16,140 bases of DNA from a virus (taxonomy: Duplodnaviria; Heunggongvirae; Uroviricota; Caudoviricetes). The number at the start of each line of letters is the position of its first letter. Positions within the stretch are counted from its first letter, which is position 1. Under the pieces are notes generated by a model. The model saw nothing but the letters and a program-made list of their open reading frames with translations. It was not told the origin of the DNA and ran no database searches. Below are positions 1-7,256 of the stretch, in pieces. The stretch lies in the IMG/VR virus record IMGVR_UViG_640753025_000003. One strand, written 5' to 3'. The position numbers and the translations under genes were made by a program.

Positions 1-1284
1 TTACAGACTTCTGGAAGGTTGCGCAGCTCTTACAACACGCGGTTGATCTTCCGCGGCGTCTTCCAGCGCACTTAAATCACGGTCTTTCACTTCTGGCATT
101 TTCAGCGCAGAGATTAAACCAATCACTGAATATGCCATGATCATAATGGCGATCGGATACCAGGATTCCGTCATGGTGCAGAAAATACCCGCCAGGATAG
201 GACCAAAACCGGAAGCGATAAGACCACCAATTTCTTTAGAAATAGCCATCCGGGTAAAGCGGTTTTTACAGCCGAACATTTCTGCCATGGTAATATTTTC
301 CAGAGCAAATAATCCCAGCACCGCACAGTTATGAATCACAATCAGTGCAACCATAATGGTGCTCGGGGCATAGCTTTTATCTACGATGATAGAAAGCATT
401 GGCCATGCCAGCACAATCGCGGAGGTATTCATAATAATATACGGGATCCGGCGACCAATTTTATCGGATAACCAACCAAGGAACGGAATGGTCATAAAGC
501 CGAGAATCGAACTGATCATCAATGCATCTGTTGGAATTGCTTTGTTAAACAATAACGTCTGCACTAAATAGCCCGCAAGGAAAGTCTGAATTAAACCTGA
601 GTTACCCGCCTGACCAAAACGCAGCCCTGTTGCCAGCCAGAAGGATTTGCTCTGGAACATGCTACCAGCAGGTGCAGGTTTTGCTGTCGGTTGGTTGCTG
701 TCGTTAACCTTCTCAAAAACCGGGCTTTCTTTCAGATTCATACGCAACCAGATAGCAAAGACCATCACGACAACGCTCGCCAGGAACGGTATACGCCATC
801 CCCACGCCAGCAGTTCCTCTTTACTGAGAATGAAGAACATAAAGGCCCAGATTGCCGTTGCGCTTAAAGTTCCGCAGTTAGTTCCCATAGCCACAAATGA
901 GGAGATAATTCCGCGCTTACCTTTTGGCGCATATTCCGCCAGCATCGTACCGGCACCGGAAATTTCCGCACCTGCACCCAATCCCTGAATAATACGCAGC
1001 GTCACCAGCAAGATGGGGGCAAAAACACCAATCTGTGCATAGGTCGGTAACACACCAATTAAGGTGGTACAGATCCCCATCATGGTGATGGTAATAAAGA
1101 GCACTTTTTTACGCCCTATTCTGTCGCCCATTTTGCCGAAAATAAATGCTCCGACAATACGCGCCACATAACCTGCACCGTAGGTTCCCATTGCCAGAAT
1201 TAACGCCATTGCCGTTGATGATTCAGGAAAAAATATTTCATGAAACACTAACGCTGCGCCGAGCGAATATAACTGGAAATCCAT
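1..1284 (-). CDS. ydfJ: MFS transporter of the metabolite:H+ symporter (MHS) family; appears 5'-truncated, starting inside the first transmembrane helix
   Basis: 427-aa ORF with stop at 1-3. Two MFS motif-A-like loops (GKMGDRIGRKKV, LSDKIGRRIP) and many hydrophobic segments. N-terminus MDFQLY aligns to the conserved (E)W(F/Y)DF motif that lies about 25 residues into ProP-type transporters, so the native 5' end seems missing. Confidence 0.8.
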   Translation of the reverse strand: MDFQLYSLGAALVFHEIFFPESSTAMALILAMGTYGAGYVARIVGAFIFGKMGDRIGRKKVLFITITMMGICTTLIGVLPTYAQIGVFAPILLVTLRIIQGLGAGAEISGAGTMLAEYAPKGKRGIISSFVAMGTNCGTLSATAIWAFMFFILSKEELLAWGWRIPFLASVVVMVFAIWLRMNLKESPVFEKVNDSNQPTAKPAPAGSMFQSKSFWLATGLRFGQAGNSGLIQTFLAGYLVQTLLFNKAIPTDALMISSILGFMTIPFLGWLSDKIGRRIPYIIMNTSAIVLAWPMLSIIVDKSYAPSTIMVALIVIHNCAVLGLFALENITMAEMFGCKNRFTRMAISKEIGGLIASGFGPILAGIFCTMTESWYPIAIMIMAYSVIGLISALKMPEVKDRDLSALEDAAEDQPRVVRAAQPSRSL

Positions 1285-2067
1285 AATTCACAGGTGTTTT
1301 TTCCCATCCTGTGGTTTCCTTGGCGTTTTCTAGGTTTTTTCAGATAGTTGCATTTTTTTAAAAGCATCCTAAGTTCGATCTCAGTGTCTATCTGGGGCCT
1401 ATTTCTGTTCCATATATGCCCCAAAAAACTCCCCAACAGATAAGTAGTTTTTTCATGGATTTACGCGTAAAATCAATAACGGCTGGAAATCATTCAATAC
1501 TCGCACTATCGAAAAATTTACCAGCCAACCGCAGCACGTTCTTGCATAAGGTGTGTCTGCGGTTTTTCAACTATTCAGATACATCACTCCCATCACATTC
1601 ATTCCTCCACATCAAAGGCATATAGGCTATATCACCTTGATATTTTTCTTCTTCAGATAAAAACTGTTATCTATGTATACTTTTAAACCCAATCCGTGTA
1701 GAGTCTCTGCATAAGATAGTTTGCAGTTGCCACTTCAGATTGCGCCATAAACCGCCTGATTTTTGCCGCCACCTGTTAGCATTCCTGTATACCTGAAACG
1801 ACAATGTTTATCTACGAACTTTAAGAACACCCAAGATAAAATTGTCAACTATATCATATATAACACATTACTAATTCGAGGCTATATGAACAGCATACTG
1901 ATAATCACTTCTCTCCTTATCATATTCAGCATTTTTAGTCATGCCCTAATAAAATTAGGGATTGGCATATCCAATAACCCAGACAAAACCGATGTATAAG
2001 TCAACATATCCTGAATCAGACATACAATATCGCAATGAAAATCAATAATATTTTAAGGAATATCTTC

Positions 2068-2301
2068 ATGAAATCAAAAGACACCCTAAAGTGGTTCCCT
2101 GCGCAGCTTCCTGAAGTAAGAATTATCCTAGGGGATGCTGTAGTGGAAGTAGCAAAACAGGGAAGACCTATCAATACCAGAACATTGCTTGATTACATTG
2201 AAGGAAACATAAAGAAAAAATCATGGCTGGATAACAAAGAATTATTACAAACAGCGATATCAGTTCTTAAAGACAACCAAAATTTAAATGGTAAAATGTA
2301 A
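2068..2301 (+). CDS. ydfK: Small prophage protein of the YdfK/YnaE family (reported as cold-shock induced)
   Basis: 77-codon ORF from the ATG at 2068, with AAGGAA 7 nt upstream. The translation MKSKDTLKWFPAQLPEV... matches my recollection of YdfK/YnaE. A long AT-rich leader lies upstream. Confidence 0.75.
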   Translation: MKSKDTLKWFPAQLPEVRIILGDAVVEVAKQGRPINTRTLLDYIEGNIKKKSWLDNKELLQTAISVLKDNQNLNGKM

Positions 2302-2617: not shown

Positions 2618-3208
2618 ATGTCTCGAATTTTTGCTTACTGTCGGATATCAACGCTGGATCAGACCACCGAAAATCAACGCCGGGAAATCGAAAGTGCAGG
2701 TTTTAAAATCAAACCTCAGCAAATAATCGAAGAACACATTAGCGGCTCAGCAGCAACCAGTGAGCGTCCTGGTTTTAACCGGTTGCTTGCTCGCCTGAAA
2801 TGTGGTGATCAATTGATTGTGACAAAACTGGATCGCCTTGGTTGTAATGCAATGGATATCAGGAAAACAGTGGAACAACTGACCGAAACAGGTATCAGAG
2901 TGCATTGCTTAGCATTGGGGGGCATTGACCTGACCAGTCCAACAGGAAAAATGATGATGCACGTAATTTCAGCAGTCGCTGAATTTGAACGAGACCTTTT
3001 ACTTGAACGCACTCATTCCGGGATAGTAAGAGCCCGCGGCGCAGGGAAACGTTTTGGTCGACCACCTGTGTTAAATGAAGAACAGAAACAGGTGGTATTC
3101 GAACGAATTAAGTCAGGTGTAAGTATAAGTGCCATTGCCCGGGAATTCAAAACCTCGCGGCAAACCATTTTAAGAGCCAAAGCAAAACTTCAGACACCTG
3201 ACATATAA
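2618..3208 (+). CDS. pinQ: Serine recombinase / DNA invertase (PinQ/PinR-like)
   Basis: 196 aa. N-terminal YCRISTLDQ motif with the catalytic Ser, resolvase/invertase catalytic domain, C-terminal HTH ([19 protein letters not shown]). Convergent with the tail fibre gene. Confidence 0.9.
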
Positions 3209-3305: not shown

Positions 3306-3479
3306 CTACGGCAGTGCTGGCCATTCAATATCCTGTGCAGTTGACGTATCAACACGGTTCAGCAACACCCGATACTTTTTCCAGGCTTCCAGCAACAAGG
3401 TTTCTTCCTCCGTTGCGATTTCCAGCTCAACAACAGTCTGAACGTACCGGGAACAGCCTCCTTCAGAGCTTGAAGGATA
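3306..3479 (-). pseudogene. Orphaned 3' end of a tail fibre assembly (tfa) gene, in frame with and directly after the stf stop codon
   Basis: Minus-strand translation of 3306-3479 is [57 protein letters not shown]. The final 35 or so residues carry the conserved Tfa C-terminal signature (W..YR..L.RVD.S.A.DIEWP..P). There is no start codon or RBS; it is separated from stf only by the TGA at 3480-3482. Confidence 0.6.
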
Positions 3480-6400
3480 TCAATGTTCGCTTCCTGTTAA
3501 CTGCCGGACAAGTGCAACCAGTTCGCTTACCTGATTTTCCAGAGTGCTGATCCGGGTGTCTGCTGTTGCCAGATTTTGACGTAGCGTTGTGTTTTCCTCT
3601 TCCAGCGCGGTAACGCGATCATCTGTTTCACGGGCGAACTGAACAAGTAAGCCCGTCACGGCGGCGTAGTCAACATTAAGATAGCGCGTTTCTTCGCGTA
3701 GCTCGTTGCCGTCAACGGTCGGACCTTGCAACTCTTCACCATAATGAGTAAACGATCCCACAGCTTCTGGTATCGCCTCCATTACTTCCTGTGCAATAAC
3801 GCCAGCATAAGGCATCCCGTTTTCCCTGAGCGTGTAGGTGTATCCGTTCATTTTACGGATTGCTTTCGTCGCGTCGCTGATAACGAGAATATCGTCTTTA
3901 AGGTCGCGGTCTGATGACTGATTCAGCGTTGTGCAATTAATAGCGCCATTTACATCAAACAACTGGCCTGCTGACGTTTTTTGCGCATAAAACAGATACG
4001 CAGCAGACGTGCCAACCTCAAAAACGTTTTGTCGAGTACTGGAACCCCACACCCTGACAGAAAACGGTAGTTCTGCATTACCTGAGTTCTGTAAAACAAA
4101 ACGATTGCCAGTCCCTGATTGTTTTGTAAGGGTTAAATCAACAGTTGAGTTAACCTCATTCCTGTTGATAGTGAGCGCCTGCGCTGTAGCCCCGTTAACA
4201 GCACCTGTTTTGAGTTGAACCGTGCCGTCATTACCATTTAACAGTATCTCAGCTCCGCTAAAGAAATTTTTTAGCGACAGCATCTTACTTACGCCGGCTG
4301 ATGAACCCAACGCCCACGCGAGAGAATTACCGGTGCTATCAAACCCACGTACAAAGCAATCCATTTTGCTATAGTCTGACGTGCTTCCAAGGACATCAAT
4401 TCGCCCTCCGCCAGATTTTACCGGACTAGATGTGGTTAACGACCTGACAGTTATATCCTGATTCCATCCGGAAACAACAACCTGACTCCACGCTGTCCAG
4501 TTTCCATTAACAACAAAGCGAACGTATATACGTTTTGTGTCGCTGTTAATCAGCGTTTGCATGTTCGCATAATCTGAATCCCTAACCTTACGAGTCGACT
4601 CTACACGGAGCAAAAAGTTACCGGCTATGCCGTCAGGCTTATTGGTAATATTTGCACCACCTGCAGAGGATGGACAAATATAGTATTTAACTGCCCCGGC
4701 ATCTGACTTGATGATGGTCAGGTTGTTAAGATTAACCGTCTGGCCGTCAATGTTTTCCGGCTCGATGGCTCCTGCTATCCCGGCAATGAACGTAGCAACG
4801 GCTGAAAACGCTGTCGTACCTTTGAAAGCCAGTTGACCACCAATCGTTAATCCCTTGTCGAGTTTCGCTTGCGTGATCAATTTGCTGTTTTGTTTCTGAT
4901 CAGGACTCTCACCAAAAGCCAGATCCCCATTAGTATCAATTCCAAGATACTTTGGGTTCATGTTGTCTAACTTAAACCCAATGGACACATTTTCAGAAGA
5001 ACCAGAACGCGTTAAAACCAACGGCGTGTGCTGTACTCCATAGATGCTGAGCGTAGTTGCCGATGAGTCAGTATCGGTATTTGCAATCTCAATCGTTCTG
5101 CTTTTAATTTTATACGCTACTGTGAGATCACGGACTTCAACCCTCCCGTCGTGACGAACAACAAGATCCCCTCCTGATGTCCCCCCTGCTGTCTTTGCCC
5201 TGATGCGAACTTCGCCAAGCGAATCAGTGTTAGGACCAGCATAGATTATGCCGCGCTCTGTGTTATCGCCAGTATAAAACCGCAAAGCGGTGACTCCACT
5301 GTCTGCCCGCAGGAAGACTGACGGTGTACCTTTTTTGATTGTCAAGTCACCGGTCATTGTATCGCCGGTTTTTTTTACCTGCGCATCGTTCGTTACGTTG
5401 CCAAGTCCAACATCCGATTTCGACGGCTTGTTTGCCGAGCCGTATAGCTCATTGATGCTAAAAGTCCCGTTGTTAAGCCGGGCATCGTTGCCGGCATAGA
5501 TCTTAATCTTCGCGGTTGAGTAGTCGATATTGATCGCTGACCACGTATCGCCGCACCGCGAGAATATACCAGAACCGTGGCTATAAATGGTCGCCGTGCT
5601 TCCGGTCGGCTTATCACCGCGCCAGAAATGACCACCTTTGTCACGCAGAGCTTTTAAGATCTCTACATCGCTCATCTTGCCGTTTGTTGATATCCCGCTA
5701 CCGCCAAGACCGAAAGCGCCTGTAAGCATAGCATTAGAAAGACCCAAATCTGCTTTAGTCGGCTTGTTTAACTGGTCGTAAATCCTTACAACGGGGCTTT
5801 CAACATATCCAGAAGGCGCGGCGGTTTGCTTAACAAATCCGTCTGGAATGTATAATTCCGTGCGTGCCGTCTGCGCCAGTACCGCAACCTTTGCGCCGTT
5901 GATAAATGCACGCTGGAAGGCCCAAACCTCAATAAAGCCATCATCTTTAACCAGGCCGTAACGCATTTGCATGCTATTGATTAGCCCGGTTGGCCCTAAA
6001 CGGCGTATACTCAGGTAACGAGATACATTATCAGCAGTAAGCGAAGAAGGCAGACCGCGCGCCGAGATCTCGATAAAGTCAATGTTTCCGTAAGGGGAGC
6101 CGTAGTCACCGCCGTTAGTAACCATTAGCGTTACATGGCAATTGTTGCTTCCGGGATCGGAAAGTTTCGCGATCTTTATGTAAAAAGACTCATTACCAGT
6201 AACAACGGGCCAATCGTATTGCGTCATCGGGCTGACGAGTCCCCCGACCTTGTCGAGATATTCTTTCGCCTTGTTCTCTGACGCTTTAGCGTTGGTTTCG
6301 CTGACCTTTGCTGCTGACTCACTATTTTTCGCGTTGGTTTCTGATTTTTTGGCTGCTGTCGCGGAATTTGCCGATGCAGTTTGTGAGTCTGCTGCCGCCT

Positions 6401-7256
6401 GTGCGCTGTTATCCGCATTCATCTCAGACGTTTTTGCGGCCTTCGCGGAATTTCCTGCCGCCGTTGCCGAGGAAGCTGCACTGCCGGCGCTCGAGGCTGC
6501 GCTCGTTTCTGATGATTTTGCCGCCACTTTTGAAGCCGACGCATCCCGGGCTGAGGTGGCAGCTTCTGACGCTTTCGTGGTCGCGGTGGATGCAGAAGTG
6601 GCCGCAGATTTTTGTGATGCTGCGGCATTCGTTTCTGACGTTTTCGCTGCACCGGCACTGGTGGCTGCCGCGCTTTTTGAAGACTCTGCAGCGGCAGCAC
6701 TTTTTGATGCTTCAGTAGCCTTTGTTGATGCCGTTCCTGCGCTGGAAGACGCTGACTGAGCCGACGACGCGGCCTGTCCGGCTGACGTGCTGGCTGCGCG
6801 TGCGGAGTCCGCAGCATCAGTCGCATGGGTTGCCGCCTCACGGGCTGATGTGCGGGCATCACTGGCTGACTTCTTCGCGGCTGCCGTGTTCTGTGCCACT
6901 GCGGACGCGTTACGCGCCACCTCTTCCACCATCAGTTCAAAGCGGCGCAGTGCCTCCGGACGGACATCATCCTCCGTCATGGCACCGAGAAAATCATTCA
7001 GCGTACCCGGTTGTGAGTCTTCATACACGGTGATGGTTCCGGCATGCGATGGCGGGAAGCCTTCCACCAACAGAATAACGCTGTACTGACCGTACTCAAC
7101 GTCCATGCTGTAACGCCCGGCTTCATCCGGGTTTTCTGAGGCCACTGTGTTCACCACCACCGTGGTGCTGTTGCGCCTGGCCTTTAGCTGAATGGTGCAG
7201 TTTTGTATCGGCTTACCTGCGCCATCTTTCAGTACACCTGAAATCCGTACTGCCAT
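3480..7256 (-). CDS. stf: Side tail fibre protein (mosaic): lambda-Stf-like N-terminus, Ala/Ser/Thr-rich repeat region, distal fibre region, C-terminal intramolecular-chaperone-type domain
   Basis: 1258-aa ORF with GGGGGG-type RBS before the ATG at 7256. N-terminus MAVRISGVLKDGAGKPIQNCTIQLKARRNSTTVVVNTV closely matches the lambda Stf N-terminus as recalled. Low-complexity A/S/T repeats (SETNA-type) at about aa 125-320. C-terminal 144 aa begin with SDRDLKDDI and contain GVIAQEV, resembling the Peptidase_S74-type auto-processing chaperone domain, then a coiled-coil tail. Confidence 0.9.
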   Translation of the reverse strand: MAVRISGVLKDGAGKPIQNCTIQLKARRNSTTVVVNTVASENPDEAGRYSMDVEYGQYSVILLVEGFPPSHAGTITVYEDSQPGTLNDFLGAMTEDDVRPEALRRFELMVEEVARNASAVAQNTAAAKKSASDARTSAREAATHATDAADSARAASTSAGQAASSAQSASSSAGTASTKATEASKSAAAAESSKSAAATSAGAAKTSETNAAASQKSAATSASTATTKASEAATSARDASASKVAAKSSETSAASSAGSAASSATAAGNSAKAAKTSEMNADNSAQAAADSQTASANSATAAKKSETNAKNSESAAKVSETNAKASENKAKEYLDKVGGLVSPMTQYDWPVVTGNESFYIKIAKLSDPGSNNCHVTLMVTNGGDYGSPYGNIDFIEISARGLPSSLTADNVSRYLSIRRLGPTGLINSMQMRYGLVKDDGFIEVWAFQRAFINGAKVAVLAQTARTELYIPDGFVKQTAAPSGYVESPVVRIYDQLNKPTKADLGLSNAMLTGAFGLGGSGISTNGKMSDVEILKALRDKGGHFWRGDKPTGSTATIYSHGSGIFSRCGDTWSAINIDYSTAKIKIYAGNDARLNNGTFSINELYGSANKPSKSDVGLGNVTNDAQVKKTGDTMTGDLTIKKGTPSVFLRADSGVTALRFYTGDNTERGIIYAGPNTDSLGEVRIRAKTAGGTSGGDLVVRHDGRVEVRDLTVAYKIKSRTIEIANTDTDSSATTLSIYGVQHTPLVLTRSGSSENVSIGFKLDNMNPKYLGIDTNGDLAFGESPDQKQNSKLITQAKLDKGLTIGGQLAFKGTTAFSAVATFIAGIAGAIEPENIDGQTVNLNNLTIIKSDAGAVKYYICPSSAGGANITNKPDGIAGNFLLRVESTRKVRDSDYANMQTLINSDTKRIYVRFVVNGNWTAWSQVVVSGWNQDITVRSLTTSSPVKSGGGRIDVLGSTSDYSKMDCFVRGFDSTGNSLAWALGSSAGVSKMLSLKNFFSGAEILLNGNDGTVQLKTGAVNGATAQALTINRNEVNSTVDLTLTKQSGTGNRFVLQNSGNAELPFSVRVWGSSTRQNVFEVGTSAAYLFYAQKTSAGQLFDVNGAINCTTLNQSSDRDLKDDILVISDATKAIRKMNGYTYTLRENGMPYAGVIAQEVMEAIPEAVGSFTHYGEELQGPTVDGNELREETRYLNVDYAAVTGLLVQFARETDDRVTALEEENTTLRQNLATADTRISTLENQVSELVALVRQLTGSEH

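Follow-up and report, generated by a model that had tools for sequence, protein, structure and literature searches.

The prophage small protein gene ynfT is the first cistron of a portable two-gene cargo cassette in temperate phages

The open reading frame (ORF) at positions 1886–1999 of a 16,140-nucleotide Caudoviricetes sequence (IMG/VR record IMGVR_UViG_640753025_000003; hereafter the window, meaning the whole stretch of DNA analysed) is ynfT, a real, translated and selectively maintained gene for a protein of 37 residues, and together with one further cistron, which follows it, it makes up a compact cargo cassette carried by temperate phages. A preliminary description of this DNA, made from the letters of the sequence, had proposed a prophage-carried small protein gene at this place, and rightly so: the ORF is annotated as ynfT and its product has been detected in Escherichia coli K-12. 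It is a correct rediscovery and not a new gene, because it has a RefSeq annotation, curated family models and a K-12 detection dating from 2018, and there is practically no doubt as to its identity or that it is coding. The explanation we favour, with moderate confidence, is that YnfT is a translated and selected small protein which serves as a lysogen-expressed membrane accessory, encoded at the head of the cassette.

Over 1286–2620 the window matches E. coli strain HS at 100% identity, ynfT being present there in a single copy, and the RefSeq coding sequence ynfT (‘YnaM/YnfT family protein’, WP_120795384.1) maps exactly to 1886–1999. In profile hidden Markov model searches the peptide matched Pfam PF23676 ‘YnaM’ over residues 1–37 of 37 (96.2 bits, cutoff 27) and NCBIfam NF041477 over residues 2–34 (63.9 bits, cutoff 35); it also matches PHROG 35882, a family without assigned function. 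Furthermore, it is identical to both K-12 entries of VanOrsdel 2018 (PMC6001520), where the same 37-residue sequence is given twice for K-12 MG1655, once as ynaM in the Rac prophage, between ynaE and ttcC, and once in the Qin prophage between ydfJ and ydfK (1632890–1633003), the latter named ynfQ in that paper and now ynfT. Both K-12 copies were detected by immunoblotting of chromosomal sequential peptide affinity (SPA) tag fusions and were positive in a tetracycline ribosome profiling (Ribo-seq) screen (PMC6001520). The tagged protein is detected in both exponential and stationary phase in K-12, and the YnaM-SPA level lies above that of most newly found small proteins (Weaver et al., bioRxiv 511675). 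The gene in the window shares with K-12 YnaM/YnfT the identical 37 amino acids, the same Shine–Dalgarno (SD) sequence and a position directly upstream of ydfK/ynaE, at the prophage end adjoining a pin invertase gene; it differs, in no substantial way, by being the single-copy HS version and by a small number of nucleotides that are either synonymous or outside coding sequence.

Read directly, ynfT opens with an ATG at 1886, continues for 37 sense codons and ends with a TAA at 1997–1999, with the SD sequence GAGG placed 4 nt (CTAT) before the start, exactly as first described. It lies between the truncated major facilitator superfamily (MFS) transporter gene ydfJ' (1–1284, minus strand) and ydfK (2068–2301, plus strand), in an interval of 783 bp (1285–2067) with a GC content of 0.365 against 0.475 for the whole window, and this AT-rich interval indeed contains no other convincing ORF. 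The Kyte–Doolittle maximum over 19 residues is 2.52, at residues ~4–22, and the grand average of hydropathy is 0.99, which predicts a single transmembrane helix (residues ~4–22) followed by a polar tail, again in agreement with the preliminary description.

In AT-rich DNA, where ORFs rich in isoleucine, leucine and phenylalanine arise readily, a hydrophobic 37-codon ORF is by itself weak evidence for a gene, and the pattern of substitution among its relatives is far more telling. A degenerate DNA pattern for the invariant part of the tail recovered 80 loci on viral contigs, independently of ydfK. These form two clades, an E. coli-type with a tail ending in TDV and a Salmonella-type (MDNTL..., with a tail ending in TDE or TDD), the latter comprising 11 loci with four alleles and occurring also in Salmonella phage 118970_sal3. 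The invariant stretch of the polar tail is common to both clades, and the frame of ynfT is the only one of six to remain open in both. Between them, 14 of the differences in ynfT are synonymous and 8 non-synonymous (synonymous rate dS ~1.08, non-synonymous rate dN ~0.10), giving a dN/dS of 0.09 (Fisher p = 1.5e-6), close to the 0.08 found for ydfK between the same clades, and 14 of the 22 differences from the Salmonella-type copy fall at third codon positions. The test of Ka/Ks that had been proposed with the initial description therefore came out at 0.09, with the reading frame kept in both clades. The same bias is seen at shorter distances: among 29 E. coli haplotypes, 8 of the segregating sites are synonymous and 2 (S18G and H19Y) non-synonymous, position 19 (H/Y/C) being the one freely variable residue, and the Rac-type and Qin-type copies of one K-12-like genome differ at three sites, all synonymous. 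Taken as a codon pattern, this points to strong purifying selection over the whole length of the peptide, which is new in this analysis.

That ynfT is a chance ORF in AT-rich non-coding DNA, for which its composition and the lack of a Ribo-RET start peak could be cited, has next to no probability. This reading is already refuted by the evidence for selection and detection, namely the frame kept in both clades, the dN/dS of 0.09 (p = 1.5e-6), the product seen by immunoblot and Ribo-seq, and the existence of curated family models for ynfT.

Three candidate features were set aside. An in-frame TTG at 1763 was rejected as an upstream start; Salmonella-type copies carry a stop codon three codons before the ATG, hence the start is fixed at ATG 1886. 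A perfect 7-bp hairpin within ynfT codons 20–25 (CCCUAAU-AAA-AUUAGGG, 1944–1960, plus strand) was rejected as a functional element, as it is absent from the Salmonella-type clade, and is probably incidental. The only ‘divergent’ full-length homologue (P0030, 74–76% identity) was rejected as well, being derived from a bisulfite-converted (C to T) E. coli assembly: its source contig (L098, from Logan SRR21953772) has no C on this strand, and the protein-database entry is an artefact. The protein homologue search used a query padded with 3 in-frame residues, and most of the other single-substitution protein variants, which were singletons or truncated entries, were left out.

The gene is part of a cassette whose elements and flanks in the window are as follows:
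1–1284, minus strand: ydfJ', truncated MFS transporter gene, a RefSeq pseudogene without its N-terminus; the host/prophage junction lies directly to its right, at ~1285.
1835–1877, plus strand: conserved upstream block, GATAAAA-TTGTCAA ... TATAAC (1859–1864), putative cassette promoter, from two-clade alignments.
1878–1881, plus strand: SD sequence GAGG of ynfT, kept in the Salmonella-type clade.
1886–1999, plus strand: ynfT coding sequence, 37 residues and stop, based on the RefSeq coding sequence, family models, K-12 identity and dN/dS.
2000–2067, plus strand: ynfT–ydfK spacer of 68 nt, with the ydfK SD sequence AAGGA at 2055–2059.
2068–2301, plus strand: ydfK, cold-shock-induced, 77 residues, second cistron of the cassette.
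2618–3208, plus strand: pinQ-type serine invertase gene with its own promoter-like site at 2531–2558 (TGTACA-16-AATAAT).

The two cistrons are tightly associated. ynfT was present in all 85 YdfK-anchored loci that include upstream sequence, and ydfK follows 68–74 nt downstream of ynfT in 79 of the 80 YnfT-anchored loci. Tritos, an intact phage, carries exo, xis, int, (attP), ynfT, ydfK, pin and tail fibres in this order, and because the cassette adjoins attP in intact phages it comes to lie at the prophage end in a lysogen, as in the window, where it abuts the disrupted ydfJ. Salmonella phage 118970_sal3 has a different backbone, with baseplate-J type tail genes and no pin, and again carries ynfT–ydfK between int and tail-fibre assembly genes. 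Nucleotide homology with this phage extends from ~50 nt upstream of the ynfT ATG to just past the ydfK stop codon, starting at the upstream block (1835–1877), and since it stops at both ends the mobile unit can be delimited as the conserved upstream block, SD, ynfT, spacer, SD and ydfK. That ynfT–ydfK forms a portable cassette, found beside attP in intact phages of the lambdoid type as well as in a Salmonella phage unrelated to them, is new in this analysis.

The cassette is patchily distributed among phages and common in E. coli. Searching with its DNA matched 13 of 50,697 phage records, two unrelated phage backbones among them. A tblastn search of the 37-residue peptide against phages gave no match, most likely owing to the low-complexity filter, given the 13 records matched by DNA. 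The ynfT segment was found in 2,806 of 5,426 complete E. coli genomes (52%), at 1–3 copies each and mostly at >=99% identity, a frequency that is likewise new in this analysis.

Several of these properties are those of a ‘moron’, an accessory gene expressed by the lysogen. The cassette sits between int/attP and the pin/tail-fibre genes, has an atypical GC content (0.34–0.36 against 0.475 for the window) and is patchy among phages, and both protein and RNA have been reported from K-12, which carries Rac and Qin in cryptic form, so that expression in the prophage state is documented. As to signals of its own, the conserved upstream block, inferred to be the cassette promoter, and a peak for the RpoD holoenzyme in genomic systematic evolution of ligands by exponential enrichment (gSELEX) are seen, with no terminator-like site after ydfK. 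The lambdoid morons found between the tail-fibre genes and attP (lom, cor, HK97 gp15) are likewise compact, low-GC, lysogen-expressed cargo of the same neighbourhood and occur in only some related phages, as does this cassette, which has moved between unrelated backbones. ynfT–ydfK differs from them by comprising two genes, by being expressed in the manner of cold-shock genes and by the lack of a terminator in our scan; to our knowledge, unlike for those morons, no exclusion or virulence phenotype is known for it.

Published expression data suggest that ynfT stands at the head of a cold-responsive transcript. In K-12, the RpoD-holoenzyme gSELEX peak lies in the spacer upstream of ydfK (listed as ydfI<>ydfK), and in one RNA sequencing data set ynfT rose 5.7-fold and ydfK 5.3-fold along with cspB, cspG, cspI and deaD. 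The 5' leader RNA of ydfK/ynaE has been described as abundant, prematurely ending, co-immunoprecipitating with Hfq and riboswitch-like by proposal. In our interpretation, ynfT heads a ynfT–ydfK transcript with a short leader and putative operon boundaries, and the previously described ‘leader RNA’ is at least partly ynfT mRNA. The alternative raised with the preliminary description, that this region is instead the 5' leader of ydfK, thus holds in part: an abundant Hfq-bound leader RNA is on record, but it is not exclusively a leader, as ynfT is its first cistron.

The same data can be read to mean that translation of ynfT mainly controls ydfK, by attenuation or cold-shock coupling, and that the peptide itself has no function. 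The position of ynfT 68–74 nt upstream of ydfK in nearly all loci would suit such a leader peptide, as would the prematurely terminated, reportedly riboswitch-like ydfK/ynaE leader transcripts and a small hairpin around the ydfK SD and start codon which is maintained in both clades. Selection on the amino acids over the whole length (dN/dS 0.09) is not what a functionless peptide predicts, however, and the tagged peptide accumulates stably. Between ynfT and ydfK we found neither a terminator nor conserved alternative hairpins, the spacer, 68–74 nt long in 79 loci, is poorly conserved in its middle and carries indels there in the two-clade alignment, and folding five sequences of the two clades together gave only a weak consensus (-14 kcal/mol over 278 columns), in which the covariation term is unfavourable and a single pair is compensatory. 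The two genes also occur apart, ynfT without ydfK in one viral contig (L168) and ydfK without ynfT in Erwinia. As no conserved attenuator was found, a role as leader peptide only is unsupported, and we regard it as distinctly improbable.

A related proposal is that the short ynfT transcript doubles as mRNA and as an Hfq-dependent trans-acting small RNA, with the RNA activity being the main one. Fragments of both leaders, of ydfK and of ynaE, were recovered with Hfq by co-immunoprecipitation, and a role as independent small RNAs was proposed in that study. Against this stand a protein-coding pattern of substitution, with changes at third positions, a dS of ~1.08 near saturation and a conserved peptide, as well as the lack of conserved structure, of an intrinsic terminator as is typical of Hfq-dependent small RNAs, and of known targets; the probability we give to a principal RNA role is very small.

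The preliminary description had also likened the ORF to type I toxins, and this suggestion is not supported: no antisense signal, structured mRNA or toxin family was found, and the protein is made in normal growth. As a type I toxin, YnfT would damage the membrane, its synthesis being kept down by a small RNA that is antisense to its message or overlaps it. Its architecture is suitable, with 37 residues, an N-terminal hydrophobic helix and a polar, charged tail, although a small hydrophobic membrane-targeted peptide is a non-specific feature of this class. It is prophage-borne with 1–3 copies per genome, its mRNA binds Hfq according to the literature, it resembles PepG1 below threshold (E 0.055), and a promoter-like site on the minus strand (2077–2050) could in principle drive an antisense RNA. 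Against a toxin, the PepG1 score, 13.1 bits against a cutoff of 70, was the best toxin match, while Pfam gives YnaM only, and there was no PADLOC match and no Rfam family at threshold on either strand. Promoter-like sites occur at chance level (7 found, 5.8 expected), the minus strand has no terminator, and the single terminator-like site lies far upstream.

The transcript itself is also predicted to be unlike those of known toxins. The mRNAs of hok, tisB and ldr are typically strongly folded with the SD occluded. For ynfT, folding was indistinct from shuffled controls (z -0.34 for the plus and -0.55 for the minus strand) and the SD region is largely unpaired. Moreover, expression from the native locus yields a readily seen and comparatively abundant SPA-tagged product, both during exponential growth and in stationary phase, and a first cistron in an operon with ydfK is not a type I layout. 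In comparison with Fst, PepA1/PepG1, Ldr, Hok and TisB, YnfT therefore has the same size, single hydrophobic helix, polar C-terminal tail and carriage on mobile elements, but differs in having no detected antisense RNA partner and no toxin-family membership, and in an mRNA which is unstructured, operonic, accessible at its SD and expressed in normal growth. Our literature searches found no published test of toxicity on ynfT overexpression. Overall, the type I toxin idea is disfavoured, and we consider it unlikely.

We conclude that an accessory (‘moron’) protein expressed by the lysogen is the more likely role of YnfT, ahead of a classical type I toxin and of a leader peptide with a regulatory task only. 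In a working model, YnfT would insert into the inner membrane, as predicted, and there probably bind and modulate a larger membrane protein, by analogy with most characterised small membrane proteins. It may possibly work together with YdfK, whose predicted fold is like those of the small connector regulators AriR/YmgB/YcgZ. MgrB, SafA, AcrZ and MgtS are comparable in having fewer than 50 residues, one transmembrane helix, co-regulation with stress and stability when tagged; YnfT differs in being phage-borne and not part of the core genome, and the likeness is one of architecture.

A number of observations weigh against this accessory-protein explanation or limit its reach. Membrane insertion is a prediction from hydropathy, and an SPA tag could stabilise or inactivate the peptide, such that accumulation of the tagged form is no proof that the native form is harmless. 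A sequence scan found no terminator-like site after ydfK. Whole-word literature searches found no functional, localisation or interaction study of YnfT, and in a survey of the y-ome from 2024 ynfT still figures among the uncharacterised genes. The pairing with ydfK has exceptions: in L168 (IMGVR_UViG_2861008536_000002, reverse strand, ~5300–5420) an intact Salmonella-type ynfT with upstream block and SD has no ydfK, homology breaking at the ynfT stop codon, the sole locus of the 80 with ynfT alone, and an Erwinia plasmid carries a more distant YdfK homologue with no YnfT-like ORF upstream. Linkage of ynfT and ydfK is thus not obligatory. Lastly, YnaM showed no start-codon peak in retapamulin or Onc112 profiling (Weaver et al., bioRxiv 511675). 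On this point, the K-12-type Qin (L007) and Rac (L014) copies (2267–2341) share every nucleotide from -52 to +22 around the ynfT/ynaM ATG, hence initiation footprints are not uniquely mappable between them, and the missing peak is plausibly a multi-mapping artefact. The single copy in HS sidesteps this problem of the K-12 data.

A more far-reaching possibility, which we consider doubtful, is that YnfT is the membrane half of a cold-responsive two-protein phage module, or else the founder of a toxin class controlled via its Hfq-bound mRNA and not by antisense RNA. If the module were real, YnfT would link the AriR/YcgZ-like YdfK, by recruitment or coupling, to a sensor or transporter in the host inner membrane, and at low temperature lysogens would signal differently at the envelope or shut out superinfecting phage.

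As a discovery the gene is minor: an annotation and models in Pfam and NCBIfam already exist, and its translation was demonstrated in 2018. It does serve as a positive control, since the raw sequence, read without tools, was enough to point to a genuine gene for a small protein. With about half of the complete E. coli genomes carrying it, ynfT is among the most widespread uncharacterised small proteins of E. coli prophages, and the pairing of YnfT with YdfK offers a testable lead for the E. coli y-ome, prophage cargo genes and cold adaptation.

According to the literature, the partner protein YdfK and its counterpart YnaE respond to cold with a rise of RNA as well as of protein, and a predicted Fur-box cluster at ydfK +8 has been reported. 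Structure prediction gave YdfK a fold resembling AriR/YmgB, which is new in this analysis, and a sequence search of the PDB with YdfK returned nothing significant. A small AU/GU-rich hairpin in which 2049–2058 pair with 2085–2093 (plus strand) encloses the ydfK SD and start codon. Here, the ydfK SD region (UAUUUUAAGG) pairs with ydfK codons 6–9 (CCUAAAGUG). The hairpin is maintained in both clades, with one-sided (G-U) changes only, does not involve ynfT, and could affect temperature-dependent translation of ydfK.

Some records of the cassette are of uncertain quality. Scattered 1–2-nt indels disrupt both ynfT and ydfK at ~2290–2735 in L013 (E. coli ECGI0523) and L015 (Shigella flexneri SFBU0723), which are either decaying pseudogenes or error-rich assemblies; YdfK in the other ECGI0523 copy (L011) is 99% identical to the query. 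Full or partial ydfK/ynfT sequences, 99–100% identical or partial, are also filed under metagenome-assembled genomes or assemblies of Caldithrix, Alistipes, Draconibacterium and Chryseobacterium (L004, L006, L009, L012), and E. coli-like ydfK/ynfT appear as protein records of Xanthomonas citri and Acinetobacter baumannii (P0011, P0039). All six are almost certainly E. coli or phage contamination and do not reflect host range.

Elsewhere in the window, the non-coding stretch 1530–1667 (minus strand), between the prophage junction and ynfT, gave a sub-threshold Rfam match to CssrB, a Shigella chromosomal small RNA, over the full model length (22.8 bits against a gathering score of 76, E 0.046), which we regard as noise. 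To the right of the cassette, pinQ has a separate promoter according to the gSELEX literature. Adjoining the Pin invertase gene, at 3306–7256 on the minus strand, are a tail-fibre gene of 1,258 residues and a truncated tail-fibre-assembly pseudogene, and invertible host-range segments usually have their pin and tail-fibre genes arranged like this.
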